A stretch of 64,000 nucleotides of DNA from an uncultured Planctomycetia bacterium (GCA_964649665.1 CAZYPU010000001.1:16428-80427), one strand, 5' to 3'. Positions 5,031 through 62,510 are shown, counted from the stretch's first letter. Numbers and translations are program-made. The notes: generated from the letters alone by a model not told the origin.

Positions 5031-5175
5031 CTCCGTCATTGCGAGGACCCCGAGCAAGCGGCCGAAGGCCGCGCGTCGAGGGGGACGAAGCAATCTCAAA
5101 CGAAGAGATTGCTTCGGTCTGCTTCGCAGACCTCGCAATGACGGAATAAAGGCTTCGCGGCCTCGCAATGACGAA
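5031..5175. mobile_element. MITE-like palindromic element, copy 1 (TIR CTCCGTCATTGCGAGG / CCTCGCAATGACGGAG; internal core palindrome CGAAGCAATCTC..GAGATTGCTTCG; tandemly duplicated right terminus)
   Basis: This is the reverse complement of the element at 7768-7933 and is also related to 62409-62510. Terminal inverted repeats were read directly. It sits immediately 3' of the giant ORF stop and is preceded by the conserved flank GATAATGTAAAATATTGTGGRCACTTT. Confidence 0.75.
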
Positions 5176-5223
5176 GAAGCGAAATGTCCAATTATCTTGA
5201 TATTACAGGGCTTTTTTTCCGGC

Positions 5224-5252
5224 TTGATATTCCGTATCTTTGCAGGTATACT
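5224..5252 (+). promoter_or_regulatory. Sigma70-type promoter TTGATA-17 bp-TATACT upstream of the MFS transporter; the ATG lies about 9 nt after the -10, giving a leaderless or near-leaderless transcript
   Basis: -35 TTGATA at 5224-5229, 17 nt spacer, -10 TATACT at 5247-5252, ATG at 5261. The whole block is duplicated at 7985-8013. Confidence 0.55.
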
Positions 5253-5260
5253 CTACACAT

Positions 5261-6448
5261 ATGGGTGTACGCACTTTTTGCCTTCTGATGATGGCCGCGT
5301 TTTCCGCGTCGCTGGGCCTGGCGGTAATATCACCTTTCCTGCCGGAGCTTGCCCAAAACCACGGCGCCAACGGTTTCTGGATAGGCATGATATTCGCCGG
5401 TTTCGCGGTGTCTCGCGGTATTGTCACGCCTTTCATAGGAAAAATATCCGACAGGGTAGGGCGTAAAATATTTGTCGTCACCGGGCTTTTGCTCTATTCT
5501 CTCGCCTCTCTTCTTTATATCAAAGCCGATAATGTTTACCTTTTGACGCTGGTCCGGATTATCCACGGGCTCTCAGCCGGCATGATATTGCCTATCGTAA
5601 TGGCGTATGTCGGAGAGCTTGCCAGGCAGGGCAGGGAAGGCCTTACGGTAGGGGGATTGAATACGGTGCTATACCTGGGAGTGGCCGCGGGCCCGCTCCT
5701 CGGCGGAGAACTTGCCGAGCGTTACGGCTTCGACGCCGTTTTCTACGCCATGGCCCTTCTCGGGGCCACGACGCTTATTTTTGTAATATTCCTACTTCCC
5801 GAAGCGAAAGGCACGACCCCACAAAAAGCGCCCGGTATCGCGCCGTTTAATATATTGCTGAAATATAATTACGTAAAAGCTATTTTGATAATGGCGCTCA
5901 TTTCGACGGCGCTTTCAGCCGTCTTCATGTCATTTCTTCCGTCCATGGCCATAAGGGATTTTGTGGACGTCGCGCACACAGGCTTTATCATATCCGTATC
6001 TATATTTATCGCGGGGCTCCTGCAGATCCCGTTCGGCAAGTTCGCCGAACATCATGGCCGCCCGGGTAAACTTCTGCAGTCGAGCATGGGAATTTCCGTT
6101 TCCATGCTGGCCATATTTGTTCTGCCGCTTTGCCCGAGTTACTGGGCCCTTTTCGCGGCGGGATGTTTTATGGGGCTCGGTATTGCCATATGCGTGCCCG
6201 CTGTGACGAGCCTTTCCATGGAGATAGGCAGAAAAGTCGGCATGGGAATGTGGATGGGCGTATTCTGGGCAGTAATGAGCGCGGGGATTGTCGCCGCGCC
6301 GATAACGGCGGGCATCATAATGGACCGCCTCGGGATTGATTCCGTGTTTTATTCTTTCGCTATCTTTACCTTTTTCAGCGTACTTCTTTGTCTGTATTAC
6401 ATATTTCGAAAGACAACCGCAGAAAAGCGCCTAAAGTATTTAAAATGA
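5261..6448 (+). CDS. MFS transporter (major facilitator superfamily)
   Basis: 12-TM-like hydrophobic profile. MFS signature G-x-x-SDRxGRK (GKISDRVGRKIFVV) between TM2 and TM3. The ORF track begins at a TTG at 5240 that overlaps the -10; ATG 5261 (MGVRTF..) or ATG 5288 is more likely the true start. Confidence 0.85.
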   Translation: MGVRTFCLLMMAAFSASLGLAVISPFLPELAQNHGANGFWIGMIFAGFAVSRGIVTPFIGKISDRVGRKIFVVTGLLLYSLASLLYIKADNVYLLTLVRIIHGLSAGMILPIVMAYVGELARQGREGLTVGGLNTVLYLGVAAGPLLGGELAERYGFDAVFYAMALLGATTLIFVIFLLPEAKGTTPQKAPGIAPFNILLKYNYVKAILIMALISTALSAVFMSFLPSMAIRDFVDVAHTGFIISVSIFIAGLLQIPFGKFAEHHGRPGKLLQSSMGISVSMLAIFVLPLCPSYWALFAAGCFMGLGIAICVPAVTSLSMEIGRKVGMGMWMGVFWAVMSAGIVAAPITAGIIMDRLGIDSVFYSFAIFTFFSVLLCLYYIFRKTTAEKRLKYLK

Positions 6449-7707
6449 ACAAAAAAATCCCATTTTTACTTATATTTATGGTCGGCTGTTTCATTACCGG
6501 CAACATGATAGGCGCCGGAATACTGGGCCTACCCATAAAAACCGGCGTGGCAGGCTTTTGGCCGTCTATGGTAGGGCTTCTTGCGCTCAGCGCGGCGCTT
6601 TTTTTCACGGCGATCGTGCTCGCAAAAGAATCAATAAAGCGCCGCCAGGAGATTTTTCACTATCCCAGCCTATACCAGGAGTATTTCGGCCACGCGGGAA
6701 AATGGGTTGCCACCCTGGCGAATCTCACCATACTCTACGGCCTTCTTACCGTGTACCTTACCGGTTCGGCGACGGTTATCGCGAGGCTTCTAAACATTCC
6801 CGTTCCGAGATTCGTGATTCTACTGGTGTTTTTCGCGATCTTTACAGGTATCACGTTCCTCAAGCCGAAGCTGCTTTTTAAGCTTAGCACTTTGTTCGTA
6901 GTGCTTTTGTGGATTTCGTTTGGCATTCTTGTAGTCATGGGGGAGAGATACGTGGACGCCTCGCGTTTTGCCTACCAGGACTGGAAAATGCTGCCGGCCG
7001 CGCTCCCGATCATAGTAATAGCGGCAAACTTCCACAACATCATACCTACTATATGCAAGAAGCTCAACTGGAATCTCAGGGATATATTGCTGGCTTTTCT
7101 TTTCGGCGCTGTTGTGGGATTTGTGATGAACGCGATATGGATCCAGATAGGCATAGGGGTGCTGCCGCTTAAAGGAGCCGGAGGTATTTTACACGCCCTT
7201 CAAAAAAGCCTCCCGGCGACCGTGCCCCTCGCAAATGCGATAAAAACGCCGCTTTTTATCCAGGCGGCGCTCATGTTCACCCTTACGGCCATTATAACCT
7301 CGTATATCTCGATAGGCCGCACCCAGATTGATTTTATCGATGATGTCATTACGAATTATACCAGAATGCCGAGAAGCGCGGCTCTCAACTTTGCGCTGGC
7401 CTTCGCTCCGCCGCTCATTATATCGCTTGTGTACCCGGATATCTTTCTTGACGCTCTCGATTTTGTCGGAGGAATAGGGAAGGTCATACTCTTTGGTATT
7501 TTCCCCTGCATACTTGCCATAAGAAGCATGCGGTCATTGGCAAAGCGCCTGTTGATTGCGGTACCGGCGCTTCTTCTCTTCTGCGTTATCCTGATATTTA
7601 AAGTCGGACAGGGATTAGGTTTGTCACATATCAAGCGGGGAGTGAACTACTGGACGAATAATTTCAGGCCCCACAACTACAAACCTCAAGACGAATTTCG
7701 AAAGTAG
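6445..7707 (+). CDS. Aromatic amino acid permease, HAAAP family (TnaB/Mtr/TyrP-like)
   Basis: The N-terminal motif GNMIGAGILGLP resembles IIGAGMFSLP of Mtr/TnaB. The protein is about 420 aa and polytopic. The ATG overlaps the MFS stop (ATGA), indicating translational coupling. The track start at 6388 is an in-frame upstream extension. Confidence 0.7.
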   Translation: MNKKIPFLLIFMVGCFITGNMIGAGILGLPIKTGVAGFWPSMVGLLALSAALFFTAIVLAKESIKRRQEIFHYPSLYQEYFGHAGKWVATLANLTILYGLLTVYLTGSATVIARLLNIPVPRFVILLVFFAIFTGITFLKPKLLFKLSTLFVVLLWISFGILVVMGERYVDASRFAYQDWKMLPAALPIIVIAANFHNIIPTICKKLNWNLRDILLAFLFGAVVGFVMNAIWIQIGIGVLPLKGAGGILHALQKSLPATVPLANAIKTPLFIQAALMFTLTAIITSYISIGRTQIDFIDDVITNYTRMPRSAALNFALAFAPPLIISLVYPDIFLDALDFVGGIGKVILFGIFPCILAIRSMRSLAKRLLIAVPALLLFCVILIFKVGQGLGLSHIKRGVNYWTNNFRPHNYKPQDEFRK

Positions 7708-7712
7708 GAAAA

Positions 7713-7761
7713 AGGTGCCAGGCACCTTAGTTGAATTTATTTAAGGTGCCTGGCACCTTTT
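7713..7761 (+). terminator. Twin palindromic hairpins (AGGTGCCAGGCACCT and AGGTGCCTGGCACCT), the second followed by a T-run; a rho-independent terminator after the permease gene
   Basis: Perfect 7 bp stem palindromes at 7715-7729 and 7745-7759, then TTTTTC. Confidence 0.6.
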
Positions 7762-7767
7762 TCTATT

Positions 7768-7933
7768 TTGCGAGGTCTGCGAAGCCTTTACTCCGTCATT
7801 GCGAGGTCTGCGAAGCCTTTACTCCGTCATTGCGAGGTCTGCGAAGCAGACCGAAGCAATCTCTTCGTTTGAGATTGCTTCGTCCCCCTCGACGCGCGGC
7901 CTTCGGCCGTTTACTCGGGGTCCTCGCAATGAC
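7768..7933. mobile_element. MITE-like palindromic element, copy 2 (orientation opposite to copy 1; left end carries 2.5 tandem copies of a 31 bp unit TTGCGAGGTCTGCGAAGCCTTTACTCCGTCA)
   Basis: Its reverse complement matches 5031-5175 almost base for base. Same TIRs and the same core palindrome. Confidence 0.75.
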
Positions 7934-7984
7934 GGAGAAGCAAAGTACCTAATTATCTTGACATTACTGGGCTTTTTTTGCGGC

Positions 7985-8100
7985 TTGATATTTCGTATCT
8001 TTGCAGGTATACTTTACACATATGGGCGTACGTACTTTCTGCCTTCTGATGATGGCCGCGTTTTTCGCGTCGCTGGGCCTGGCGGTAATATCACCTTTTT
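7985..8100 (+). pseudogene. Duplicated MFS promoter (TTGATA-17-TATACT at 7985-8013) plus a 5' fragment of the MFS gene (first ~27 codons, ATG 8022), degenerating after ~8100
   Basis: Nucleotides 7934-8100 align to 5173-5339 with only a few substitutions, including the promoter, the ATG and MGVRTFCLLMMAAF(S/F)ASLGLAVISPF. The frame then diverges and terminates (SHNIVPRGPTTFSNI*). Confidence 0.7.
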
Positions 8101-8156
8101 CCCACAATATTGTCCCGCGCGGGCCGACAACGTTTTCGAATATATAAGGAGATGTT

Positions 8157-8426
8157 ATGAAAAAACTGGTAGTGTTAATTTTGGGATTTTGTCTTTTGTC
8201 CGGTTTTGCATACGGTATGTACGATGAGGGTACCGAACCTTCCGAGAGGGACTCGCAATATGCGCGGGATAAGGAAGATCCGGAAGATGTGACCCTGCCT
8301 GAAATGCAGACAGAGATGCCGGAAGCCATGCAGGATATAAGCGAAGAGCAGGAGGGTGATCCCCAGGAAGAATATGTCGAAGATAATGTAGGTGAAGACG
8401 AACGCGAAGCTCTTAATCTTGATTAA
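8157..8426 (+). CDS. Small secreted acidic protein (signal peptide plus a Glu/Asp-rich disordered tail)
   Basis: Good RBS (AAGGAG) 8 nt upstream. N-terminal MKKLVVLILGFCLLSGFAYG signal peptide. It may be transcribed from the duplicated MFS promoter upstream. Confidence 0.6.
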   Translation: MKKLVVLILGFCLLSGFAYGMYDEGTEPSERDSQYARDKEDPEDVTLPEMQTEMPEAMQDISEEQEGDPQEEYVEDNVGEDEREALNLD

Positions 8427-8462
8427 TCAAAGGCGCCGTATAGCCATGGGGGTAATTTAAAT

Positions 8463-9134
8463 ATGAAATTTATAAAACTTCTTTCAGTTTTAACAATTTT
8501 AATCGTAATGCCGCAGTTTGCTAAGGCCCAAGACGTCAAACCCCTGCAGCTTGCGGTTTTTAATCCCGTTCAGCTTGTTCCCGAGGAGGACTCCATTAAG
8601 GGCGCGCGCCTCGGCCTGTTTTACACCGTTAATGAAGATGTCACCGGATTGAGCCTTGTATGGGTCGGTGTGAATAGAGCTACGGGGGACGTGCGGGGAG
8701 TTGAGATCGGCCTTGGAAACTGGGTTGATGGTTCTTCGTATGGAGGGCAACTCGGCGTTCTCAACAATGTCGGGGAGCGTTTTGTCGGTTTGCAATACGG
8801 CGCGGTGAATGTCGCGGGAGGCGATTTCACCGGCCTGCAGTGGAGTTTCGTGAACTGGACGGAAGGATTCATGCATGGCGCACAGTGCGGCCTTGTGAAT
8901 ATTTCGAAGGGACAGTCAGTCGGCGTAAATTTAGGCATAGTGAATTATAACGTAGGGTCGTTCAAAGGTTTCCAGGGCGGATTTGTCAATTACGCCGATG
9001 AAATGCGCGGATTTCAACTGGGACTGGTTAACTATACCGAATCTCTTGACGGCGGCCTCCAAATAGGCCTCGCTAACTACAACGGCAATAAGGAACCCCT
9101 GGAGTTTATGGTTCTTGTCAATTGGTCGTTCTAA
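8463..9134 (+). CDS. Secreted repeat protein with about 9 tandem 15-residue repeats, G-[LFA]-Q-x-G-x-V-N-x7 (a beta-solenoid-like adhesin or outer-membrane protein)
   Basis: Signal peptide MKFIKLLSVLTILIVMPQFAKA. The repeats include GLQYGAVNVAGGDFT, GLQWSFVNWTEGFMH, GFQLGLVNYTESLDG and GLQIGLANYNGNKEP. I could not assign a named family. Confidence 0.6.
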   Translation: MKFIKLLSVLTILIVMPQFAKAQDVKPLQLAVFNPVQLVPEEDSIKGARLGLFYTVNEDVTGLSLVWVGVNRATGDVRGVEIGLGNWVDGSSYGGQLGVLNNVGERFVGLQYGAVNVAGGDFTGLQWSFVNWTEGFMHGAQCGLVNISKGQSVGVNLGIVNYNVGSFKGFQGGFVNYADEMRGFQLGLVNYTESLDGGLQIGLANYNGNKEPLEFMVLVNWSF

Positions 9135-9183
9135 TTGTTAAACAAAACCCTGCCCCGATGTTAAAATAGGGAGAAAGGCATAT

Positions 9184-9378: not shown

Positions 9379-9380
9379 AC

Positions 9381-9602: not shown

Positions 9603-9607
9603 TTACC

Positions 9608-9994: not shown

Positions 9995-10070
9995 ACCCTC
10001 GGCCTGCGTTTCGGCAGAAATACCCATTATCGAATTTATCGCGGAAAAGTAGATAGTTACAACAAAATGC

Positions 10071-10321: not shown

Positions 10322-10358
10322 AAGCAGCCGAACGAAACACAGGAGCTTTTATTCAAAT

Positions 10359-21064: not shown

Positions 21065-21125
21065 GTCATTTCGAGGGTGCCCTTCGCTTTGATTCGGGAT
21101 AAACAGAAGGGCGCGCTCAGGATGA
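21065..21125. repeat. MITE-like palindromic element, short variant (TIR GTCATTTCGAGG ... CTCAGGATGAC)
   Basis: Same TIR family as 36429-36512 and related to the CATTGCGAGG elements. Confidence 0.55.
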
Positions 21126-21215
21126 CAGAGAAAACTATTTTGACGATTTTGATTGAAGTTTAAGCCGACTCATATTACAATATATTCCCGAGATGAAAAG
21201 GATGAACGAAGATAA

Positions 21216-35259: not shown

Positions 35260-35373
35260 CCATTGCGAGCGACCGTCTCCGACCCTACAGGTCGTAGACC
35301 CGGAGGGAAGGGGGCGAAGCAATCTCATAGTTTTAGATTGCTTCGCCCCGACTTCGTCGGGGCTCGCAATGAC
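35260..35373. repeat. Divergent MITE-like palindromic element (TIR CCATTGCGAGCG ... GCTCGCAATGAC; core CGAAGCAATCTCATAGTTTTAGATTGCTTCG)
   Basis: Same core palindrome and TIR family as copies 1-3. Intergenic between nrdJ and ychF. Confidence 0.6.
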
Positions 35374-36428: not shown

Positions 36429-36512
36429 GTCATTCTGAGGCGCTTCGCCGCCGAAGGCGGCAGGGCGCCGAAGAATCTTAACGATAAGATCCTTCGCTCG
36501 GCTCAGGATGAC
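36429..36512. repeat. MITE-like palindromic element (TIR GTCATTCTGAGG ... CTCAGGATGAC)
   Basis: Read directly. Same family as 21065-21125. Confidence 0.55.
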
Positions 36513-37142: not shown

Positions 37143-37184
37143 AACCACACTCCATCGTGAAGTCTTCCGGCATGCATTTTAGGG

Positions 37185-37493
37185 CTTTGCTTTGGGGTGC
37201 ATTCTTCCGCTTGCCGCTCGAAAAAGGATGCGCGCCTTTTTCTCGCTGTGACAAAAATCACTCATGTTCTAAATGGCGCGATTGTATTCGCGATTTTTGA
37301 CAGTCGCTCCAGAACACACCCCAAAGCAAAGCTTCTAGTTACAATAGGGGACGTTTCACTTTGACGTAACAGCTTGCGAATAAAGATGTTAGAACACGTC
37401 ATTTTCCGCTTTTTTTCTACAAAAGTGGAAAATGGCAAGTTGTATATTATTGTAACACAATGAGTTATGGCAAAGTGAAACGTCCCCTATTGT
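37185..37493. repeat. Nested long inverted repeats in the 540 bp leader region of the 4284-aa giant gene
   Basis: IR-A: GCTTTGCTTTGGGGTG (37185-37200) with CACCCCAAAGCAAAGC (37317-37332). IR-B: a perfect 23 bp pair, ACAATAGGGGACGTTTCACTTTG (37341-37363) with CAAAGTGAAACGTCCCCTATTGT (37471-37493). There is also an inner imperfect IR (CATTTTCC..GGAAAATG). Confidence 0.7.
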
Positions 37494-37578
37494 CATTAAA
37501 TCAACCCAAGCTAGCGTGCACTTCTCCGTGAATAGTTGACCCGTGTTAAAGATAAAAAAGCCAGATTAAATATTACAC

Positions 37579-37615
37579 TCCTGTGACACGCCGAAGCCGT
37601 GGATATGCTATATTA
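37579..37615 (+). promoter_or_regulatory. Conserved bipartite upstream motif TCCTGTGACAC-N15-ATGCTATATTA (extended -10 TGcTATATT), shared with the second giant gene
   Basis: Identical motif halves and identical 15 nt spacing are found at 50589-50625, upstream of the 3897-aa ORF. Confidence 0.55.
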
Positions 37616-37681
37616 CTCAAGACAATATTGCGGAGCCGCACACGCGCTTCAATAGTATTATAAAAGGCAAGATATAACCAT

Positions 37682-50536: not shown

Positions 50537-50588
50537 CACGCCGTAACAGCGTGTAAATCAACCCTGTTAGTATTTTCAATAGTTACCT

Positions 50589-50625
50589 TCCTGTGACACT
50601 TGCCCCACTATTTTATGCTATATTA
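50589..50625 (+). promoter_or_regulatory. Second copy of the TCCTGTGACAC-N15-ATGCTATATTA motif, directly upstream of the 3897-aa giant ORF (ATG 9 nt after TATATT, so likely leaderless)
   Basis: See 37579-37615. Confidence 0.55.
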
Positions 50626-50633
50626 AATCTTAT

Positions 50634-53600
50634 ATGTTGCATATAAAACGTAGTATTTGGGTAAAATTTATAGCAATGGGCATGGCCTGCCTATTTTTTC
50701 TTGACACCATCTCGTGGGCGTATCCCGTTGACCGGTCCGAAATTACCACTCTCGCCGCGCAAAGCATGTTCAACTCCATTCTCGACGCCATTACAAAAAA
50801 GCCCTCCGAACGCTACTCATACCGAAAGCGTCTGGAAAAAGAAATGGTCTGCATTATCGAAATGGCGCTTAGGGCGCTGGATAGGAAGAACCCTGACATT
50901 GACTGGGGAAGCCACCTCAACATTAACGCGGCGCTTAACACGATGCAGCATGACGGGCGTTACCGCAAGCTGATGGAAGTCCTGGATATACCGAGGCGCC
51001 TGGAGGACGAAAAAGGGGAGTACATCGAAATACTCGTAAAAACCACAAGGCCAAGCGGAAGACAAAAAGAATTTACGATTAAATTCCGCGGCGAAAAACT
51101 CGATGACCTCTCTGATCGGGGCAAGATTGAGATTATATCCGCGGAAGGGAATACTGCGCCGGCGCCAAATACGGATATCGAGGCGCCGAAAGGACCGTAC
51201 GGAACCGGGGTAAAAAGGGTTAAGGTACCATTCAAGGAAAAGAATCTGGAGGCGCGAAAAAAGAAAGCGCTTTCCTTTATTAAAATAAAATCCGCCGAAT
51301 ACTGCCACAGTGAACTTTGGGATAATATCTGGAACAGCCTTGTTTATAATGGGGGCGTAGCTGAAATAGGAGCGGTTTTAAAAAGGAAGATAAATCGGGT
51401 TCTGCGCTCGCCCCCGGTGGTTAGGAAAAAAGAAGTTGCCATGGAGGCGGTGAAGAGCCTTGCGACTTCTCTTGCCCTAAAAGAGAACTCCGGCAGCGTT
51501 GACCGCGCGTTAATGCGTGATTTTAGAATAGCGGTTCTTTTATTGCTGGATATCTTTGTGCCGGGCATACATGAGGAATTTAAAAAGCAAGATATTTTGG
51601 ACGGCGAACATTTCTTTCCCGGGATATTCGACCGCCTCTCGATTCGCGGTATCCCTGCCGCCCCGGCCGCAGACATGGCCGAGCCGCAATCGCCAAAACC
51701 TGAAGGCCCAGCGCAGGGGCCGAAAGCCGAATTCATGATTCCGGGCGCGGCGCCGGACATGGGCGCGGCGGCGCTCGGAGCGCTCTGGCCGTTCGGGTTA
51801 GTCGGCGCTCTGCCGAGAACACCGCGGCGCCGGTTCGGGGAGCCCCTTATAGATTCGTTATTTAATCGCGGCAAGCGCTTCATGCAGCCGGCTATCCCGC
51901 CCGAGATGGGCGGCGCCGTAGCCGAGCCGGCATCGCCGAAGCCCGCACATGGGACAGGTACAAGCTCGGATTTGAAAGCGTCCCTACCGTCCTATACCGA
52001 AGAGACCCTGTATGCGCTGGAACAAGCAGGAGGCAATCAGGCAAAAGCAGCCGGCATACTTAACATAGGCCTATCAGCTGTCTCAGAGAGAAAAAGCCGC
52101 ATAAGACGAGTCGCCGTCAAAATAAACGATAATGCCACGCTCAAACGGCTGCTACCCCTACCGTCCTATACCGAAGAGACCCTGGAGGCGCTGAAAAAAG
52201 TAGGGGGTAATCAAGTAAAAGCAGCTCGTGTGCTTAGTATAATCCAACAAACTGTTTCACAGAGAATAATCGCCATAAGACGGGCCGCCGCCAGAATAGG
52301 CGATAAGGCCACGCTTGAACGACTTGCTAAAGCGCTATTATCATTACCTGCTTATACCGAAGCAACCCTGGAGGCGCTGGAACAATCGCAAGGCAAGCAG
52401 AAAGAAGCAGCCGGTATACTTAAGATAAGCCAAGCAACTGTTTCACGAAGAATAAGCGCCATAAGATCAATCGCCACCAGAATAGACGATAAGACTACAC
52501 TTGAACGGTTTAATGAAGTGTTAAAAGTCTCAAAAGGCGCCGCCCCAGGCGACAGCGTATCGTCAAGAGGTCGTCAAGGCGCCGCAATCGGCGCGGGACT
52601 TACCACTTTAAGCTGGCAGGCGGGATTATGCTTCTTCGCGTTCCTATTCGTTTATGAGATCGCCCGGCAGGTCTGGTATGCGAGATTCTACAAGAATTTA
52701 CTCGATAGCCACCCCAAGGCTACGCGAATAATCAATTCCTTCTTCTCAAGCTCCTTCCATTTCCCGCGGGTCATAGAAGATTTTATAAAGAACCATATCA
52801 CGCAGCCGTTACTGAATATATTCTCAAGAATAAGATTTCAAAGCCCGATCGTGCAGGTCCGATTAGCCGGCATTGGCCGCACGATTACCGTTTTCAGAAT
52901 GCCGGTGGAACTAATGATGTCTGAGAAATCGCCGCAGAAGCCGCCGGGCCATGCGCTAGGAGAGCTGCCGGCGTCCACCGCAGTCCCGTCCGAGCCGCTA
53001 GGCGCGCCGGAGGGAGCACACTCCCAACCTGACAAACTCGAACAGGTTAGGATCTTGTTGCGCACGCTCATCCAAAAAATAAATTTATTCTTTTTTGGAA
53101 TATTTTCGCAAAAGAAACAATCGCGCGAAGTTGGCCTTGAAGATTTGGTTTTTGAAAGGGCCGTTATAATCGGCGAAGGATCGTTCTCCCGTGTATTCAG
53201 AGTCCCGCATAAAGACAATGGCGTCGATTACGCGTTAAAACTTTATTGCAAGGCGCCTCCGGGTTATTCTCTGAAGAGCGCCGTTGAATTGATCGATTAT
53301 CAAATGCGCATCGCCCGCGAGTATCCGCAACTGATTAAATCCGGAATCATGCCCAAGTATTTTACAAAAGGCAGTTGTTATTTTGACGGCGATAGGCTCA
53401 GCCTTGCACCAATAAGCGAAAAAGCATACCCATGCCTGCTGATGGAGTATATCAAGGGAGATGATCTATCTTCTCTATCAGATCTGGATTATCACGTAGG
53501 GACAAAACTTGTTAGGGATGCATTGGCGGAGGGGCAAGACCAATATATTATCGCTGCCCTATATAATATTCTGCGTGATAAGCTGGACGAGGCATATTCT

Positions 53601-56600: not shown

Positions 56601-59600
56601 GCCGGCCTCCCGGGAAAGGGAAACCGCCACCAAAAGCTTCCAGATAACATATCTCTGGTAGGAAGAGAGGTTGATACTGAAGGGTTGGATTTAGATAATG
56701 TTTACTCTGACGTCAAGTTTTCCAAACCCGCTAAAGCGTCCGGTATAGGTATTTTTGCAAGAAACGAAGAATTGCTGGCAAAGATTGAAGAGATGATATC
56801 CGCCGGTGTCTGGGATCGGCGTGAAGCGTTCATTGTGAAGGAACGGTTGGGACTTAATCCGGAGGGAGCCAGGCGTTCCCTGCAGGAAATTGCGCATGCC
56901 CTGCGCATTACCAGAAACAGGGTATGGCAGATTGAGACAGACGCTATCCGGAAAGCGCAATTTTGGCTGAGGAAATCCCAACACCCTGTATTGAACGCAG
57001 AAAACGATGGACCGGCGTCTGGCACTGCGTCTGAACAGACAACAGCTACCGCCTCGGCCAAGTTGGCACCGCAAAAAGAACATGGTGGCACGTCGTCAGG
57101 AAATTCTTACGGCGCCGCAATCGGCGCGGGGCTTACCGGATTAAGCTGGCAGGCGGGATTATGCTTCTTCGCGTTCCTATTCGTTTACGAGATAGCCCGG
57201 CAGGTCTGGTACGCGAGATTCTACAAGAATTTACTCGAGAGCCACTCCGGGCCTGCCCGAATAATCAATTCCTTCTTCTCAAGCTCCTTCCATTTCCCGC
57301 GGGTCATAGAAGATTTCATAAAGGACCATATCACGCAGACGCTACTTAGCGTCGTTTCAAGAATAAGATTCCAAAGCCCGATCGCCAAAGCTCGGCTGGT
57401 TGATGGTTCAGTGGCACAGTTTCTTCAGATGCCGGTTGTATTTATGAGCACGGATTCAGGCGGCGAGGCTATAAAACGACCCGCCACCCTGCCTGTGAGG
57501 GTAAAAGAATTTTCTCAGTTGGATTCGATGCCGCTACACGGCTCGATAATGGAGTTGCCGATTTCCAGTAGAATTAAAAAAAGGTTGGCACGTGGAGGCG
57601 TCAAAACTATCGATGAACTTAAAAACATGACGCTCGACAAAATTCGTCAAATTTACGGGATTGGCGAAAAATCCATGACTATTATAAAAGCTATAAAGGA
57701 TAGGCTTGATGAATTGGCTGATATAGAGATGATGAAAAAAGAGCAATTAGCTAAGGAAGAGAAAAAGGCAGAAAATAAAAGGCGGCGGGAAAGACTAAAA
57801 TATATACGTGACGAGTTAGGCGTTAGCAGACTAAAATTCATTTCACTATTAAATGCCGCTGGGGCCGCATCCACGATAGAGATGTTGGGATATCTAAGAG
57901 GGTTAACCATTATCCCGGATCGGGTTATCGATAGTGCGGAGAATTTATTGCGACACGAGCGCGAAATAGCAAGAACAAGAGCGGTTCAGCTAGAAGCAAA
58001 AAGACAATTGGTTTCCTGCATTACGGCGTTTGAACAATTAAAAGAAAAACTTAAGACAGCAGATTTTGATGAGAGGAGGAGCGAACTTACGATTGCGCAA
58101 ATCTGGGTTGAGCCGGATTACCATACAAAGGAAATAGGCATTCACGGTTTTATGGATACAATCGCTGATAAAATAATCGCTCTAGATATTAAACCTCAAA
58201 ACCACAAGGCATTAAGGGCGCTTTTTGAATTAAGTGTAAGATATTTCAGCGGCAATATCAATGTTTTTAGAACCGTTTTGGCAAATATAAATAATGTAGA
58301 AGAACTGATAGAATTCCCTGCTTATATTGGATCCAACGGATTTAATCGCGAAAGCATAGATGAAGAAATGCGGCGTTTCCGAGAATGGCTACGTTCTAGA
58401 AGGGCAATACTTCCTTTCGAAACGGGCACATTTTCGTGTCCTTCTTGGTGGCCGTATGTGCCGAATGAGCTGGCTCCCGTCACAAGTGTCGGCAGGAGAA
58501 AATATTCCAAGGACGAAAGAGTTTCCGTAGGATATGGAGGATTTTTTGAAGGGTATTTAGATTTTATTATTGTCGGCGATACAATGCGAATTGGCGAGAT
58601 TCACGGTAAAATAGAAATGCACAGATTAATCCCAGAGGTTCGAAAGAAAGTAAGCGGCTGGGAAAAGTTGGCGCTAGAAGAAGCCATTAAAGAGGCCGGG
58701 CGGCGAGGGGTCAAGACGATTTTGTTCTCCCCTCCATTCGCGCAATACAGAGCGCTTAGCCAATGGAATACGTCTAACCCCGATTCGGATATAGCTTACA
58801 GGATTTATAGTAACCTGCCTTTTGATTCAGGGTTTAGATTAAAGATTAGAGAAAAAATCGTTTTTAGCGAAAATTTCCGCAATCAATTATTCTCTCATCT
58901 TGTATGGCAAAGAGACGCCGCCCCGGCCGCAGTCGCGGCCGAGCCGCCGGCGCCTCTGGCATCGGCCGGAGCCGCGGGCGAAACCCAAACACCCGCCGCG
59001 CGGAGGATAGTCGATACTATAAATGGTTATGAAGAAATCTTCCCGGGAGGCAACGCAGTCGGCCGTTATATAGATCCTGAAGGTAATCCGAGGAATTGCA
59101 CACTAAGCAGGGCGTGTTATGACAATGACTTCTGCAGAATACTGGCGGCGGATATCGGCAATGGCAACGCCGGAAAGAAAGCCCTCTCCATAGGCGCGGG
59201 CTCGGGTGTGCTTGAGAGTCGGCTAAACGAGGCCCATGGCCTTGAAGTTACATGTATAGATATAATCTCGAAATTCATGCCGTGGGATATGCGGGGGTCC
59301 ATGGCGTTTACTCTTGCCGACGGTGAGCATCTTCCGTTTGCGGACAATAGCTTCGATATTGTCATCTTATCGGAAAGCATAGGGCATATGAAACTTGATA
59401 TCGCCCTGGCTGAAGCGTTCAGGGTCTTGAAGCCGGGAGGAGTGATTCATATACTGACGCCTGATCCTGCGAACAAACTGTCCTGCGATCCCAGTTTGTT
59501 CGCGGCGCTAAAATATTCTCCCTATGATATCGCTCAAATTATACATGGATTGAAGAATTCAGGTTTTGAAAATGGTGAAAGAATAAAAGATGACAACCGC

Positions 59601-62327
59601 TCGGCATTCCTGGGGCTTATATATGTGCGGGCCGAAAAGGCTGCGATAACCATTCCCTCCGAGCCGGCGCCGGCCACGCAGTCAGGTCACGCGACCGCCG
59701 CCGTAAAAATACGCGAACTTACAGTTGATGAGTTAGGCGGATATTCAGTTGACCTGATAGCGTTGGAAGATAAGATGCCGCCGGCTGCCAGGGAAGATTT
59801 AGTAATACTATTGGAAGAGATTAAGAGGTGCGCTTCTCAATGTCAGCATTTTGTAATTTTAGGCGCTTTTGATAACGGTCAATTGATAGGATACACGATA
59901 GGTATGTCCGTATCATGGCTTATCGACTATTTCACGAATAAAAAGATAGCCGCTCCGGCATTCATATCCAGAATAGCAAAAGACAGCAAGAATTGGTTTA
60001 TTCCCAGGATAGTAGTTTTACCGGAATACAGAAAACATGCCGTGGCTTACAGGCTCTTTCAGCAACTATCAGGTATGGCCCGAGATAGAAACGCTCAAAG
60101 GTTTTATGCTGTTCTATTGGACGAGAGATTAGCCGCGACCCTTGAGGAATTAGGCGCTAAGCGGATAAGTCGATGGTTTAGTCTGTTAACTTCCCTCAAA
60201 GGTCAAGGCGGCGTGCATCTGAAAATACCCGTAAATTTATTTTCCGCCGGCCACACAGGTAACACAGGCGGACAGAAAAAGTACCGTTCAAAAGCCGCCG
60301 ACCCGACCGCAGGCGCGGCCGAGCCGCCGGCGACGGAACCAGCGCCGGGGGCAAGTCCAAGCTCAGATTCGGAGGAGTCTATTTCGGTACATAGTGATTT
60401 TGGAAGACGACAGTTGCTCGGATTACCCGATAAAGCACGAATGCTGAAATACATCGCTGGTAACAAAGTTATTGAGTTAGGATGCGGAGGAGGTTCGGTT
60501 ACGGGATTGATAAAACAAAGGCTTCCTGATGGCCGTGTTGTAGGCATAGATTTTGAAGAAAGATTTTTAAGAAAAGCGAGAAACGATTACCCGACTTGCG
60601 AGTTTTATCATAGAAACCTTCTGGAATGGGATGACATCGATAGCTTTAAAGGGCAATTCAGCACGGTAATATTATCAAGCGCATTACACGAGATAGAAGG
60701 TGAAGACACCAGAGAGAGGGTATTAAGGACAGCATATGAACTATTGGAGAATGGCGGCGTTATAATTTTCCGTGATGGAGTGAAACCCAAAAACAAGGAA
60801 GAAGAGGTTGAAGTAATATTAAAAACCCCATATGCAAAAGAAAAGTTTGAGCTATTTGTCAAGGAATATAGACATAGAAAAATTAGGTTCATCTATACGG
60901 ATGAAACGCATACGCGTATTCGTATTACCAGTTATGATCTGCATGATCTCCTCTGTAAATATTATTTTGAGGGTGAACTTTGGAAAAGAGACATGAGTGA
61001 GTCTTTCGGACAAATGAATATGGGGGAATATCTTGATTTAATCGGCAGGTATTTTGCTATTACGCATCATGAAAAATACATAGCGCCTTACCTAAAAGAA
61101 TTGTGGGAAAAAGATTTTGAAGTAGTAAACAAAGACTATCCCGAAAGCCATACCCTTATAGTAGCGTCAAAACCGGCCGAGCCGCAAATTTCTAAGCCGG
61201 ATGGTACGAGAACCGAAATTCTGCAGGCCGCAGCCGCGGCCGAGCCGACATCGTCGAAGCCTGCCGAGGGCGGCAGAACGATATTCAAATTTTTTTCAAG
61301 TCAAAAGGAAGTAGTTGAGATATATCGGGATGGAACGCTTAAGGTGGCAATAAAAAGACCGGACAGGGACCTCCGGGATATTTTTGAAGAATGGCTTAAG
61401 AACGAACAAGACCCCAACGTGAAGGAAGCGATTAATTTAGCGCTTGCAAAATTGCCCTTTGACACCGATAGACAAGAAGGGGTCGATACAAAAGGCGCCG
61501 CCGCGGCCGAGCCGCCGGCGACGGGGGACTATAAAACGAATATGCAGGCAATTATAAAGCCCGGTGATATCTCAATCGAAGACAGCAAATTTCTTTTAAG
61601 CCGCGCTTCGGAATACCTCAAGGAGAAGCCGGTCGATATGTCGATAGACCTTTCCCTGATACCGAAGGAAGACATGGAGAGGAACATGGAAATATGGGCC
61701 TATATAATAGCACTTCATGATAAATACGGGTTTAATGCCCACTATATATTTGAAGGGAAGGATAAGAAATATAAAGCATCGGCGGAGGAAACGCTTCTCG
61801 CGAAAATAAAAGATTTATCCTTTTGGAAACGCCTTGATGTTAAGGCCATAAAGGCGCGCGTAACCGATGAATCGCGGCCGGCCGCTATGAGAATAAGCAT
61901 CATGCCGCTCAAGAAACTGGAGGCAATGCCCGTGATACCCGAAAATACTTTTCCGGTGGCCATGTCAGAAGGGCAAAACTTAGACGGCGTACCCTTGTGG
62001 GATTTTGTGGGCGCGGCGAGCCTGGGCCTCGCGCAGGCGGCTTGCGCGAAATTAATAAGGGAAAATAAAGCCGGCTATTTGGAAACCATAGAGCGTAAGT
62101 TTCTCCCGAGAATGCAGGCTATATACGAAAGGCTATTTCCAGGGAAGGAAGTAAAAGAAATAGTTACGAGGCAAACAATCCTCGAAATGGTAAACGAAGA
62201 TCCTTCCGCCGTAAGGGCGCGAATAAACCTGCTCATAGAGCTTGCCTTGCCGCCCATCGTGCGCCTGGCCCTGCGGGATCTAGACGACTACTACGCCAGT
62301 CTCCGCACCCTGCTAAGAGCCGCGTAA
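50634..62327 (+). CDS. Giant multi-domain membrane-associated protein (3897 aa): Fis-type HTH x3, Hanks-kinase-like, M50-like HExxH, sigma70 region-4-like, RNAP alpha-CTD-like, two SAM-methyltransferase domains and a GNAT domain
   Basis: Single uninterrupted 11.7 kb ORF. N-terminal leader homologous to that of the previous giant ORF. Multiple hydrophobic segments. AAAEPPAP-type linkers occur between modules. Confidence 0.85.
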   Translation: MLHIKRSIWVKFIAMGMACLFFLDTISWAYPVDRSEITTLAAQSMFNSILDAITKKPSERYSYRKRLEKEMVCIIEMALRALDRKNPDIDWGSHLNINAALNTMQHDGRYRKLMEVLDIPRRLEDEKGEYIEILVKTTRPSGRQKEFTIKFRGEKLDDLSDRGKIEIISAEGNTAPAPNTDIEAPKGPYGTGVKRVKVPFKEKNLEARKKKALSFIKIKSAEYCHSELWDNIWNSLVYNGGVAEIGAVLKRKINRVLRSPPVVRKKEVAMEAVKSLATSLALKENSGSVDRALMRDFRIAVLLLLDIFVPGIHEEFKKQDILDGEHFFPGIFDRLSIRGIPAAPAADMAEPQSPKPEGPAQGPKAEFMIPGAAPDMGAAALGALWPFGLVGALPRTPRRRFGEPLIDSLFNRGKRFMQPAIPPEMGGAVAEPASPKPAHGTGTSSDLKASLPSYTEETLYALEQAGGNQAKAAGILNIGLSAVSERKSRIRRVAVKINDNATLKRLLPLPSYTEETLEALKKVGGNQVKAARVLSIIQQTVSQRIIAIRRAAARIGDKATLERLAKALLSLPAYTEATLEALEQSQGKQKEAAGILKISQATVSRRISAIRSIATRIDDKTTLERFNEVLKVSKGAAPGDSVSSRGRQGAAIGAGLTTLSWQAGLCFFAFLFVYEIARQVWYARFYKNLLDSHPKATRIINSFFSSSFHFPRVIEDFIKNHITQPLLNIFSRIRFQSPIVQVRLAGIGRTITVFRMPVELMMSEKSPQKPPGHALGELPASTAVPSEPLGAPEGAHSQPDKLEQVRILLRTLIQKINLFFFGIFSQKKQSREVGLEDLVFERAVIIGEGSFSRVFRVPHKDNGVDYALKLYCKAPPGYSLKSAVELIDYQMRIAREYPQLIKSGIMPKYFTKGSCYFDGDRLSLAPISEKAYPCLLMEYIKGDDLSSLSDLDYHVGTKLVRDALAEGQDQYIIAALYNILRDKLDEAYSIAQAVNACHSAEPHGTFPGGLLIKELKPTNIKVRPDKTVCLVDLESAVPLNYDWVRNPSGVPPVARLVMTSAFSEDKNAFKDKSKAGLILLGQKLDVPWDIYSFGVVLSRMLHEYNITLDDAAEIKEAAVQTDTMRRFLERAEFAKGQFKRSIAGMKEIIKKCTIKDRTKRYRDMGEVIEALKDCIGVVDKEFRGKIPAELPSQEPRGTTSQESIEPKAAAAEPPAPRVAPKATEPLPETAGTNSGPDSKSPLSPSMLPGGEEQPYKPGQYVYEHPYKWFLISAAGLSANLLAAALCLVPAILISSSINLSTPPLIALGGALLYCAGALNAIIFAVNILEAGMAFIRGDVVVKDIPSETDKIKKYLYTASIPHELGHYLMARLFGLNVKFSTIGVDCKDIDVFEVTDYTNMRYAINMMKERGLFPFSSSQPGKFNRVKIGGSNEFVFNVTEKDRYLLEQMVRAWASEKSLDAGIEVTMDNRLINVYKGHDQYAILSYSVGMGENSEIEITIYNQRVEYPYKSQGLMALLQTYIFYLSKSDKVTYWNIEGTDGKVFAKTMEDKGILTDVKYKKTSRLEDHTEVRYAEASINKNVVAQRAKDYPFAAEPPSPQGPKAEFMVPGAALDTGAAALGALWPLGLVGALPRTLRRRFGEPFMDSIFNRGRCFMQPAIPPEMGGSATECEAPKPVNISAEKKEAFFNELGIGEEALAAAILKSPTLAGLNPARVRRAWRDKLGIEKEALAAAILKWPKIAGYNVPNNIKPKLQILKMFNVGKNKIMDFLIRIVDFNSKALEFILEASKASSFEIKDIKTLIRIYRKLNKAVKAKTKVTLAGWFRERITDDINLTVKPILSDIITELQSEETVDEDLWAMIKEAKAIFERQEENAVARGEREEPRKFSPIALFRIDSALYYRARRIGMLRRLHYIKPRLGLRKEDTGRLIQEIMKAEEEFDRREERDVRRGFRDSARPWIRRRLWEINPYLYDFLHNHRPDLLKTCVPAGLPGKGNRHQKLPDNISLVGREVDTEGLDLDNVYSDVKFSKPAKASGIGIFARNEELLAKIEEMISAGVWDRREAFIVKERLGLNPEGARRSLQEIAHALRITRNRVWQIETDAIRKAQFWLRKSQHPVLNAENDGPASGTASEQTTATASAKLAPQKEHGGTSSGNSYGAAIGAGLTGLSWQAGLCFFAFLFVYEIARQVWYARFYKNLLESHSGPARIINSFFSSSFHFPRVIEDFIKDHITQTLLSVVSRIRFQSPIAKARLVDGSVAQFLQMPVVFMSTDSGGEAIKRPATLPVRVKEFSQLDSMPLHGSIMELPISSRIKKRLARGGVKTIDELKNMTLDKIRQIYGIGEKSMTIIKAIKDRLDELADIEMMKKEQLAKEEKKAENKRRRERLKYIRDELGVSRLKFISLLNAAGAASTIEMLGYLRGLTIIPDRVIDSAENLLRHEREIARTRAVQLEAKRQLVSCITAFEQLKEKLKTADFDERRSELTIAQIWVEPDYHTKEIGIHGFMDTIADKIIALDIKPQNHKALRALFELSVRYFSGNINVFRTVLANINNVEELIEFPAYIGSNGFNRESIDEEMRRFREWLRSRRAILPFETGTFSCPSWWPYVPNELAPVTSVGRRKYSKDERVSVGYGGFFEGYLDFIIVGDTMRIGEIHGKIEMHRLIPEVRKKVSGWEKLALEEAIKEAGRRGVKTILFSPPFAQYRALSQWNTSNPDSDIAYRIYSNLPFDSGFRLKIREKIVFSENFRNQLFSHLVWQRDAAPAAVAAEPPAPLASAGAAGETQTPAARRIVDTINGYEEIFPGGNAVGRYIDPEGNPRNCTLSRACYDNDFCRILAADIGNGNAGKKALSIGAGSGVLESRLNEAHGLEVTCIDIISKFMPWDMRGSMAFTLADGEHLPFADNSFDIVILSESIGHMKLDIALAEAFRVLKPGGVIHILTPDPANKLSCDPSLFAALKYSPYDIAQIIHGLKNSGFENGERIKDDNRSAFLGLIYVRAEKAAITIPSEPAPATQSGHATAAVKIRELTVDELGGYSVDLIALEDKMPPAAREDLVILLEEIKRCASQCQHFVILGAFDNGQLIGYTIGMSVSWLIDYFTNKKIAAPAFISRIAKDSKNWFIPRIVVLPEYRKHAVAYRLFQQLSGMARDRNAQRFYAVLLDERLAATLEELGAKRISRWFSLLTSLKGQGGVHLKIPVNLFSAGHTGNTGGQKKYRSKAADPTAGAAEPPATEPAPGASPSSDSEESISVHSDFGRRQLLGLPDKARMLKYIAGNKVIELGCGGGSVTGLIKQRLPDGRVVGIDFEERFLRKARNDYPTCEFYHRNLLEWDDIDSFKGQFSTVILSSALHEIEGEDTRERVLRTAYELLENGGVIIFRDGVKPKNKEEEVEVILKTPYAKEKFELFVKEYRHRKIRFIYTDETHTRIRITSYDLHDLLCKYYFEGELWKRDMSESFGQMNMGEYLDLIGRYFAITHHEKYIAPYLKELWEKDFEVVNKDYPESHTLIVASKPAEPQISKPDGTRTEILQAAAAAEPTSSKPAEGGRTIFKFFSSQKEVVEIYRDGTLKVAIKRPDRDLRDIFEEWLKNEQDPNVKEAINLALAKLPFDTDRQEGVDTKGAAAAEPPATGDYKTNMQAIIKPGDISIEDSKFLLSRASEYLKEKPVDMSIDLSLIPKEDMERNMEIWAYIIALHDKYGFNAHYIFEGKDKKYKASAEETLLAKIKDLSFWKRLDVKAIKARVTDESRPAAMRISIMPLKKLEAMPVIPENTFPVAMSEGQNLDGVPLWDFVGAASLGLAQAACAKLIRENKAGYLETIERKFLPRMQAIYERLFPGKEVKEIVTRQTILEMVNEDPSAVRARINLLIELALPPIVRLALRDLDDYYASLRTLLRAA
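51981..52530 (+). other. Three tandem ~56-aa repeats, each a Fis-type (HTH_8-like) helix-turn-helix
   Basis: LPSYTEETLYALEQAGGNQAKAAGILNIGLSAVSERK, LPSYTEETLEALKKVGGNQVKAARVLSIIQQTVSQR and LPAYTEATLEALEQSQGKQKEAAGILKISQATVSRR resemble the NtrC/Fis C-terminal HTH (AL..TGGN..KAA..LGI.R.TL.RK). Confidence 0.55.
53135..54170 (+). other. Domain: eukaryotic-like (Hanks-type) Ser/Thr protein kinase fold with an atypical catalytic loop (IKELKPTN in place of HRDLKPxN); possible pseudokinase
   Basis: Gly loop IGEGSFSRVF, the YALKL Lys, helix-C Glu, hinge LLMEYIKGDDL, VDLES in the DFG position, and subdomain IX DIYSFGVVL. The catalytic Asp is replaced by Glu (GAG at about 53673-53675). Confidence 0.7.
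54714..54746 (+). other. HExxH zinc-metalloprotease-like motif (PHELGHYLMAR) in a transmembrane context, similar to site-2 protease (M50)
   Basis: HELGH followed by ..AR, as in RseP/SpoIVFB, and preceded by hydrophobic helices. No downstream LDG motif was found, so this is tentative. Confidence 0.35.
56815..56970 (+). other. Domain: sigma-70 region 4-like HTH
   Basis: RREAFIVKERLGLNPEGARRSLQEIAHALRITRNRVWQIETDAIRKAQ fits the r4 pattern (ER...L.LRYGL.....TLEEIG...gvTRERIRQIE.kALRKL). Confidence 0.6.
57519..57720 (+). other. Domain: RNA polymerase alpha-subunit C-terminal domain (alpha-CTD, HhH)-like
   Basis: MELPISSRIKKRLARGGVKTIDELKNMTLDKIRQIYGIGEKSMTIIKAIKDRL against the alpha-CTD pattern LELSVRSANCLK.A.I.TVGELV..TE.EL..I.NFG.KSL.EIKE.L. 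Confidence 0.6.
59180..59465 (+). other. Domain: class I SAM-dependent methyltransferase (Methyltransf_11-like), first copy
   Basis: LSIGAGSGV (motif I), LPFADNSFDIVI, LKPGGVI. Confidence 0.65.
59855..60165 (+). other. Domain: GNAT-like acetyltransferase
   Basis: QLIGYTIGM ... IVVLPEYRKHAVAYRLFQQL. Confidence 0.45.
60463..60785 (+). other. Domain: class I SAM-dependent methyltransferase, second copy
   Basis: VIELGCGGGSVT (motif I) ... VVGIDFEERFL ... FSTVILSSALHEI ... LENGGVIIF. Confidence 0.65.
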
Positions 62328-62408
62328 TCATTAAGTGATAAAGAAACTGTGTCCGACCGCGTAAGTCGGACCTACGCGGTGATAATGTAAAATATTGTGG
62401 GCACTTTC

Positions 62409-62510
62409 AACATGTCATTGCGAGGTCTGCGAAGCAGACCGAAGCAATCTCTTCGTTTGAGATTGCTTCGGCCGCAAACGAAGAACAGGGCGGCCTCGCA
62501 ATGACGGAGA
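62409..62510. mobile_element. MITE-like palindromic element, copy 3 (same orientation as copy 2; shortened right arm), with conserved left and right flanks
   Basis: CATGTCATTGCGAGGTCTGCGAAGCAGACCGAAGCAATCTCTTCGTTTGAGATTGCTTCG ... CCTCGCAATGACGGAG. Left flank GATAATGTAAAATATTGTGGGCACTTT and right flank GAGAAGCAAAG..CAATTATCTTGACACTAC match those of copy 1. A double hairpin (GTCCGACCGCGTAAGTCGGACCTACGCGG, 62351-62376) precedes it. Confidence 0.7.

Follow-up and report, generated by a model that had tools for sequence, protein, structure and literature searches.

Miniature elements with IS256-type ends and an inverted palindromic core in a 64-kb stretch of uncultured bacterial DNA

The locus and its repeat family

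We analysed a stretch of 64 000 nt from an uncultured bacterium labelled Planctomycetia (GCA_964649665.1, CAZYPU010000001.1:16428-80427), here called the window, whose intergenic spaces hold a family of palindromic repeats. From left to right these repeats lie among a giant open reading frame (ORF) at the left edge, genes for transporters including one of the major facilitator superfamily (MFS), a ribonucleotide reductase (RNR) gene, ychF, a gene of 185 codons, two giant genes and folC. Since the FolC homologues of the window are named Candidatus Omnitrophota, we place the window in that phylum. Three of the repeats (copies 1-3) are MITEs (miniature inverted-repeat transposable elements), non-coding and 160-208 nt long in this family, of which the window holds two complete copies and one truncated. 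We consider it probable, at roughly three chances in four, that they derive from an insertion sequence (IS) of the IS256 family, and that the inversion of their core, by which copies differ, is a secondary and passive rearrangement.

The family was first noticed in an earlier note made from the sequence alone, which listed six copies, and all six were found at its coordinates or a few bases away. The repeats far exceed chance: CTCCGTCATTGCGAGG has nine matches in the window at up to three mismatches against 0.44 expected, and the degenerate motif GTCATYSYGAG has 12 against 0.15 expected. The note called the family MITE-like, and the kind of element was recognised rightly; its anatomy and boundaries were misassigned, the true termini being what had been taken for flanks. 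What had been taken for the terminal inverted repeat (TIR), CTCCGTCATTGCGAGG, is an internal inverted repeat lying inside the left (L) and right (R) ends. At least eight further loci of the element occur in contigs of samples Ga0208325 and Ga0163203. Loci taken from other assemblies for comparison carry L-numbers (L001-L144). The parts of copies 1-3 are as follows.

5000..5207, + strand: copy 1, complete MITE, core in orientation 2 (hairpin B adjoins L, hairpin A adjoins R)
5000-5026: copy 1, L end
5032-5046 and 5131-5145: copy 1, internal inverted repeat
5047..5130: copy 1, 84-nt core (hairpin B, central hairpin CGAAGCAATCTC/GAGATTGCTTCG, hairpin A)
5147-5176: copy 1, extra 30-nt unit
5177-5207: copy 1, R spacer and R end
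7768..7968, + strand: copy 2, truncated MITE lacking the L end, with the R end reaching 7968
7768-7847: copy 2, tandem 31-nt units
7822-7837 and 7922-7937: copy 2, internal inverted repeat
7838-7921: copy 2, core in orientation 1
62373..62380: copy 3, left copy of the target-site duplication TACGCGGT
62381..62540, + strand: copy 3, complete MITE of 160 nt, core in orientation 1 (L end 62381-62407; the module occupies 62414-62505 and the R end reaches 62540)
62541..62548: copy 3, right copy of the target-site duplication TACGCGGT

Folded as single-stranded DNA, copy 1 reaches -57.6 kcal/mol (z = -8.6). Copy 3 folds into a four-way junction, at -40.8 kcal/mol as DNA (z = -7.8) and -70.1 kcal/mol as RNA (z = -8.0); the four arms of the junction in single-stranded copies 1 and 3 are the outer stem, hairpin A, the central hairpin and hairpin B. 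Rfam gave no match in the whole window at gathering thresholds, and an Rfam family for copies 3-5 was rejected after relaxed thresholds yielded merely chance-level matches to miRNA-like hairpins. A literature search by sequence strings retrieved only unrelated primers.

Element ends and target-site duplications

The L terminal inverted repeat is GATAATGTAAAATATTGTGGRCACTTT and the R repeat is AAAGYGCCCAATTATCTTGACACTACT; L and the reverse complement of R align from end to end as imperfect inverted repeats (GATAATGTAAAATATTGTGGGCAC versus AGTAGTGTCAAGATAATTGGGCAC). In the window, GATAATGTAAAATATTGTGGRCACTTT is found at positions 5000 and 62381 only, and the right-hand sequence AATTATCTTGAYAYTAC at 5190, 7951 and 62523. 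The earlier note had observed that copies 1 and 3 share both flanks. The sequences are indeed identical; they belong to the element itself (5000-5207 and 62381-62540), because L and R bracket differing interiors, carry 8-bp target-site duplications (TSDs) and bound transposase-encoding IS. Since the supposed flanks are element termini, repeated independent insertion at a preferred target, which the note had offered as one explanation, is not needed.

A metagenome scan with the left flank as query returned at least 117 loci, among which many are chance matches in AT-rich DNA and about 45 have the full motif ...ATATTRTGGRCRCTTT. In the loci with the full motif, L and R enclose interiors that vary between genomes, an example being a 176-nt element on many Ga0315284 contigs. 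Direct repeats of 8 bp surround L...R at L021 (CAGCACCT), L051 (TGCTTATCT) and L125 (CGCTCTGGG); at L036 the duplication is (T)TTCATAACT, of ambiguous length (8-10 bp), and in other MITE copies it is 8-9 bp long. The check for TSDs that the note had proposed is borne out by copy 3, with its 8-bp duplication (see the list above).

Hallmarks of the IS256 family are an 8-bp TSD, a subterminal TGTAAA, a -35 element in the R-TIR and a -10 element, TAAAAT, in the L-TIR, the two promoter halves coming together in a circular intermediate (PMC7780238); a TSD length of 8-9 bp is also given for the family (PMC3189936). Every one of these hallmarks (TSD, TGTAAA, -35 and -10 halves) is present in this family of elements. 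The L end reads GATAA-TGTAAA-ATATT, with TGTAAA at positions 6-11 and TAAAAT also contained, and the R end has TTGACA five nt from its tip and TGTCAA at the mirror position of the TGTAAA of L. Given a 6-bp junction spacer, the predicted junction promoter would have its -35 and -10 halves 18 nt apart.

Knowing the true ends (GATAATGTAAAATATT... and ...AATTATCTTGACACTACT) allows masking of a repeat that fragments Omnitrophota and Planctomycetota assemblies. Knowing them also accounts for spurious small ORFs and for rearrangements nearby, among them the duplication of the MFS promoter described below.

A full-length IS256-family partner

The same L and R ends enclose a transposase gene in other genomes. 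At L033 (1132-2588) they lie 1.46 kb apart between copies of the TSD GAGCAGGG, and the single ORF between them scores 268 bits against the NCBIfam model NF033543 (transpos_IS256; cutoff 150) and 224 bits against Pfam PF00872. Other full-length copies are L010 (labelled Planctomycetia; TSD AACGAGCG), L046, L056 (TSD TTCAAGTA; its ends are of the GTGGGCACTTT type, and its L end is identical in type to that of the window), L097 and L144, the last from an Omnitrophota metagenome-assembled genome (MAG). The full-length IS measures 1.42-1.47 kb and its hosts are Omnitrophota and Planctomycetota. The ends of copies 1 and 3 agree with those of L033, L010, L056, L097 and L144, which gives the MITE family a partner of IS256 type in a phylum about which little is known. 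With a limit of E<=1e-40 the transposase has 1148 homologues; most of them are on contigs 1.4-2 kb long, and several carry the name IS256 family transposase [Candidatus Omnitrophota]. Scans of viral contigs gave a few matches, one of them (L016) a full IS copy, and were otherwise uninformative.

The left end of the IS consists of the L-TIR, a hairpin half module (GTCATTGCGAGG, a mini-hairpin and CGAAGCAATCT) and then GTTCTTTGAAATGTAAA. The half module contains CGAAGCAATCTC, and an inner TGTAAA motif follows it. The right end is the mirror image of the left, and the transposase stop codon lies inside the R repeat (TGA of cTTGAca). We rejected a later insertion of the full-length IS into a doublet of half modules that was already there: the inner boundaries have no TSD, and the TSDs stand at the outer L and R ends.

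Upstream of the transposase start at L033 (1215-1290), and also in L010, L016 and L144, there is a hairpin, GGTATATCCTC ... GAGGATATACC, with which the ribosome-binding site pairs; our guess is that it may be a device against read-through expression.

The window itself was searched for mobilising enzymes by a Pfam scan of 32 chosen ORFs, mostly on the + strand, with several called ORFs left unscanned. No transposase or recombinase (serine or tyrosine recombinase, DDE or Y1) was found among these 32. The search for a cognate transposase or invertase that the earlier note had suggested has led to an IS256-family transposase in related genomes and to none among the scanned ORFs. A transposase with matching TIRs, which the note held would mark these as ordinary MITEs, exists in related Omnitrophota and Planctomycetota genomes; for this genome the scanned ORFs gave none.

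Inversion of the core

The earlier note's central observation is real: relative to the fixed outer sequences, the core of copy 1 has the opposite orientation to that of copy 3, and copy 2 has the orientation of copy 3 (orientation 1). Copies 1 and 2 are reverse complements at 97% over 137 nt (5022-5158 versus 7810-7946). Their cores match at 82 of 84 positions in reverse and at 44 of 88 forward, and the core of copy 1 matches copy 3 at 59 of 85 in reverse and 42 of 86 forward. The core of copy 1 is also the exact reverse complement of the L085 core, and is identical (84/84) to that of L094. Perfect inverted repeats of 15-17 bp bound the core.

Both core orientations occur in one subfamily, marked by hairpin B (ACCCCGAG...GGGGGA) and by CTCC spacers that are symmetric. 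Hairpin A lies beside L and B beside R in L085 and copy 2; B lies beside L and A beside R in copy 1 and L094. In a census of distinct loci with hairpin A, it stands beside L at nine and beside R at two. The core has been flipped, and the family offers a clean natural case of a MITE core turned exactly between internal inverted repeats.

The palindrome has changed in other ways as well. The tandem repeat reported by the note is present at 7768-7847 (period 31, 2.6 copies, 100% matches), with one extra unit in copy 1, and one to three units of 31 nt are found per copy in copy 2, L058, L061, L094 and L103. Since these units remain beside hairpin A in every case, it was the outermost GTCATTGCGAGG there that took part in the flip. 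Deletions that excise a hairpin have affected L036, L062 and L076, and L079 has an insertion within hairpin B. Such deletions, duplications and insertions are as expected of an unstable long palindrome, of which an exact flip of the core is likewise an unsurprising outcome.

Copies 1 and 2 share more than the element.

5161..5337, + strand: direct repeat, first copy (MITE R end, flank GGGCTTTT.., promoter-like TTGATA-17-TATACT at 5224-5252, first ~30 MFS codons from ATG 5261)
7922..8098, + strand: direct repeat, second copy (copy 2's R end, same flank, promoter-like site at 7985-8013, truncated 5' fragment of the MFS gene)

The two stretches are 177 nt long and 92% identical, comprising the R end and 150 nt beyond it. 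Because this right-hand stretch of R end plus flank is common to both, copies 1 and 2 are one insertion site that was duplicated, not independent insertions. The left junction of copy 2 lies directly 3' of the terminator hairpin of a permease gene (7743-7759). The R end of copy 1 differs from that of copy 2 by about 8%, while its core equals that of L094, and this suggests that the interior of copy 1 was replaced by conversion from a flipped copy.

The note had placed copies 1 and 3 immediately 3' of giant ORFs. Copy 3 does follow a fully visible ORF of 3897 aa; the ORF before copy 1 extends past the left edge of the window. Common coding ancestry of the left flanks was considered and rejected, the ORFs upstream of copies 1 and 3 not being homologous (best E = 0.05). 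Frame 1 of the window is open from the first base to a stop at 4990-4992, where L003 has two genes (2229 and 394 aa); the single 1-nt indel relative to L003 in this giant gene is a frameshift polymorphism or a sequencing error.

Origin of the elements

We propose that deletion of the IS interior would have joined the two half modules, leaving L, an inverted palindromic doublet and R, as in copies 1 and 3. From what is known of the family, an IS256-family transposase acting in trans would bind the L and R ends, and the element would move by copy-out/paste-in through a circle, generating 8-bp target duplications. In the circle, TTGACA of the R end and TAAAAT of the L end, about 18 nt apart with the 6-bp spacer, would make up a junction promoter. 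The 84-nt core would then have been flipped by recombination, or by template switching during replication, between the perfect 15-17 bp repeats ((T)CTCCGTCATTGCGAGG), and transposition or gene conversion would have carried the flipped form to two loci or more, copy 1 and L094 being those known.

Several points weigh against this origin. Copy 1 has no clean TSD, its flanking 8-mers (GGATTCTT and GGGCTTTT) agreeing at five of eight positions, for which reason we regard it as probably recombinant; copy 2 has no L end, so the TSD criterion does not apply to it. The scanned ORFs of the 64-kb window include no transposase, the species of the window is absent from the genome collection that was scanned, and the cognate IS is known from other Omnitrophota MAGs. 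Some full-length IS do not have the half module at one end, L096 at the left and L046 and L056 at the right, and half modules also occur solo or as doublets with no IS256 ends. The module may thus lead an independent existence, and a deletion that joined two IS ends may not be the whole origin of the MITE core. As to the flip, its mechanism is inferred, and consensus assemblies could miss an inversion present at low frequency.

Stand-alone copies and the hairpin half module

The remaining three copies in the window are all of the stand-alone kind.

35260..35373: copy 4, stand-alone inverted doublet between the RNR gene and ychF, with no IS256-type ends
36429..36512: copy 5, stand-alone variant doublet between ychF and the 185-aa gene (GTCATTCTGAGG..CGAAGAATCTT and AAGATCCTTCG..CTCAGGATGAC)
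21065..21126: copy 6, short simple palindrome (GTCATTTCGAGGGTGCCCTTC ... GAAGGGCGCGCTCAGGATGAC) with neither the central CGAAGCAATCTC hairpin nor IS256-type ends

The left spacer of copy 4, TCAACTTGCCATTGCGAG, matches that of the MITE, TCAACATGTCATTGCGAG, at 16 of 18 positions, and its loop resembles IS sequence on both sides of the deletion. Where copy 4 stands in the window, between the RNR gene and ychF, L005 carries one half module and L004 leaves a gap of 1 nt. The arms of each half of copy 5 still pair with each other (ATTCT/AGAAT in one, ATCCT/AGGAT in the other); the corresponding gap in L004 is 6 nt. Local alignment against shuffled sequences detected no decayed L or R ends around copies 4-6 (p = 0.1-1.0). 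For copies 4-6 the choice is between ancient relics whose ends are gone and hairpin repeats that spread independently.

Over the fetched loci we counted about 50 variants of the half module, with covarying stems (TGC/GCA, TCT/AGA, CCT/AGG, TCC/GGA, TTC/GAA and others). It occurs solo, in doublets and within IS ends, and some IS copies lack it at one or both ends. A scan of the genome collection with a 22-mer of the module, GTCATTGCGAGGTCTGCGAAGC, gave six matches, one in an unclassified 'uncultured bacterium' MAG and five, identical to it, in Planctomycetota-labelled MAGs (Pirellulales, Planctomycetia, two Sedimentisphaerales and Phycisphaerales).

These findings bear on the alternative that survives best, in which the GTCATTGCGAGG doublet or half module is an independently mobile element, like the repetitive extragenic palindromic sequences (REPs) and their paired form (REPINs), nested within the MITE, and the difference in orientation reflects separate insertions. 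It would account for the stand-alone forms with no IS256 ends, namely copies 4-6, L085 (156, 1419 and 2081), L005 and the Planctomycetota loci L009 and L012-L014; for the behaviour of the module as an indel relative to the IS, missing at one or both ends of some full-length copies; for the many covarying variants; and for the CAGAT on either side of the solo module at L085:1419. However, both orientation classes have identical junctions (CTCC|GTCATTGCGAGG on each side) and an identical 84-nt core, as a flip predicts, and with one half module at each end of the full-length IS a simple internal deletion gives the doublet. L-R shells with a clean empty site did not turn up, since L062 and L076, which are short, have kept AATGACGGAG and are hence deletions, and no enzyme that would mobilise the module is known or was found. 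We judge this nested alternative to be improbable.

A broader form of this idea concerns the module itself (GTCAT-N3-GAG..CGAAG-N3'-ATCTC). It may conceivably be a mobile or selected REP-like unit, nearly unchanged in Omnitrophota and Planctomycetota, that colonises intergenic sites and IS256-family ends by means of an enzyme whose substrate might be hairpins of single-stranded DNA that have GAA loops; flips and solo-to-doublet transitions would then be its footprints and not passive instability. We give this little credence. A conserved hairpin module present both in IS ends and alone across two phyla is nevertheless the potentially weightier issue raised by the family.

In L005 (1123-1146), GTCATTGCGAGG falls within codons 5-8 of a lipoprotein-like gene after ychF (MKANVIAR...), and may be an element remnant recruited into the 5' end of a coding region.

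Switch or artefact

In programmed inversion of the kind seen in invertons, a site-specific recombinase would turn the core round between the CTCCGTCATTGCGAGG repeats, with an effect on the expression of neighbouring genes; site-specific inversion between these repeats was one of the explanations offered in the earlier note. In favour of such a switch are the geometry, an 84-nt segment between perfect 15-17 bp inverted repeats with identical sequence in both orientations, and the location of elements upstream of genes (MFS, folC) and near promoter-like sites. The proposal received no positive support: no recombinase or invertase is among the 32 scanned ORFs, and no sigma-70-like site lies within 5047-5130, 7838-7921 or 62426-62493 (a search that did not cover other promoter types). 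Six loci, each seen in two or three independent consensus assemblies, have one orientation each: copies 1-3 and the pairs L058/L137, L136/L092 and L131/L074. Copies 1 and 2 are identical in L003, from a different sample and one indel away from the window in 9.2 kb, and L001 and L002 carry copy 3 unchanged. Between samples Ga0208325 and Ga0163203 no locus was found in differing orientations, with only three overlapping pairs to compare, all concordant. Orientation tracks subfamily and locus and does not vary at any one locus, and the same palindrome shows the deletions and duplications typical of passive instability. We regard a programmed switch as very unlikely. We favour a passive flip, through recombination or template switching, after which the flipped form was copied, because each of these loci has a single orientation, no recombinase was found among the scanned ORFs, no sigma-70-like promoter lies in the cores and the palindrome has undergone other rearrangements. 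The family reveals no new regulatory switch.

Least probable of all is that short-read assemblers crossed the palindrome in an arbitrary direction or joined different copies: such repeats do break assemblies, many contigs stop within the element, L074 combines the left flank of L131 with the right flank of L136 and L011 terminates in an Illumina adapter, but the orientation of copy 1 is reproduced in the independent assembly from another sample, that of copy 3 in two other assemblies, a second locus (L094) has the flipped form too, and the bounding repeats, at just 15-17 nt, are expected to be shorter than the final k-mers and reads (settings and read lengths being assumed).

The flank join in L074 (sample Ga0163203), of two loci seen apart in Ga0208325, is a product of recombination between MITE copies or a chimeric assembly. 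In the public MAG contig of L011 (CAJVYN010000007.1, ~640-700) the adapter AGATCGGAAGAGCACACGTCTGAACTCCAGTCAC directly follows a half module and is an untrimmed-read artefact at the repeat.

Comparison with known systems

The partners share with IS256-family elements such as IS256 and ISCth4 a length of 1.42-1.47 kb, a single ORF with matches to NF033543 and PF00872, 8-bp TSDs and imperfect TIRs about 27 bp long, as well as a subterminal TGTAAA, a -35-like hexamer in the R-TIR, TAAAAT in the L-TIR and a stop codon in the R end. The window copies differ in their size of 160-208 nt and in having no transposase, and the partner IS add a conserved hairpin module and a second, inner TGTAAA between TIR and gene. 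We know of no description of such a module or inner motif in IS256.

Like the bacterial MITEs Correia of Neisseria and MITEPsy of Pseudomonas syringae, the copies are short, non-coding, multicopy and intergenic, with TIRs, TSDs, long hairpins and structural subtypes. Unlike those, their partner is of the IS256 family, and a core that is the exact reverse complement between copies is unusual as the description of a subtype. A non-exhaustive literature search found no description of an IS256-derived MITE.

Small inversions between hairpin-forming inverted repeats are known from chloroplast non-coding DNA, and template switching at quasipalindromes from bacteria. Here too a segment bounded by perfect inverted repeats is flipped with its sequence unchanged and with no dedicated recombinase; the substrate differs in being the interior of a mobile element, so that, by analogy, the flipped form could be copied to new loci.

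The half module resembles REPs, bacterial interspersed mosaic elements (BIMEs) and REPINs in being a ~36-60-nt hairpin that occurs solo or in inverted doublets, in its intergenic position just 3' of stop codons and in its many variants that keep the pairing. It differs in its 5' end, GTCAT where REPs have a GTAG-type tetranucleotide, and in being nearly identical across two phyla, whereas REPs are usually lineage-specific. No REP-associated tyrosine transposase (RAYT; PF01797-type, Y1/IS200-like) is among the 32 scanned ORFs.

With invertons (fimS, hin and the promoter inversions of Bacteroides) the elements have in common inverted repeats around a short segment near gene starts. The differences are that no recombinase and no internal promoter were found here and that the consensus assemblies show no heterogeneity of orientation at any locus.

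Neighbouring genes and insertion history

At the folC locus the nearest relatives are L004 and L005, with FolC 72% and 69% identical to that of the window. Both lack the giant genes and have no element at this locus. Their gene order is RNR, ychF, a gene of 185-199 aa and folC, with little or no spacer: in L004 the gaps across the three junctions are 1, 6 and 4 nt, and in L005 the RNR-ychF junction has a 48-nt half module, the calls of ychF and the 199-aa gene overlap, and the gap between that gene and folC is 5 nt. The same junctions in the window hold copy 4, copy 5 and ~25 kb with the two giant genes and copy 3. Because the relatives' junctions are near-empty, the elements are insertions in this lineage.

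The giant genes (37682-62327) encode 4284 and 3897 aa and separate the 185-aa gene from folC. We take the ~25 kb as a lineage-specific insertion because genes of the 185-aa type and folC abut (4-5 nt) in L004 and L005. Pfam domains are scattered through both giant genes, L-PSP and GNAT in the first and methyltransferases, a kinase-like domain, a helix-turn-helix and the RNA polymerase alpha C-terminal domain in the second. A motif CCTGTGACAC ... TATGCTATATTA precedes each of them (37575-37625 and 50585-50635) and may be a shared promoter or operator. Between the 185-aa gene and the first giant gene, at 37184-37498, stand a palindrome with 22-nt arms at 37184 and 37311 and another whose 78-nt arms (37336-37413 and 37421-37498) are 73% complementary; both are unrelated in sequence to the MITE. 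The coding region of folC contains an inverted repeat (63430-63499) whose 32-nt arms match perfectly and stand 6 nt apart. The RNR of L004 (GCA_049642705.1, 1-1414) is 1164 aa long and contains an intein with a LAGLIDADG domain, and that of the window has 771 aa and no intein.

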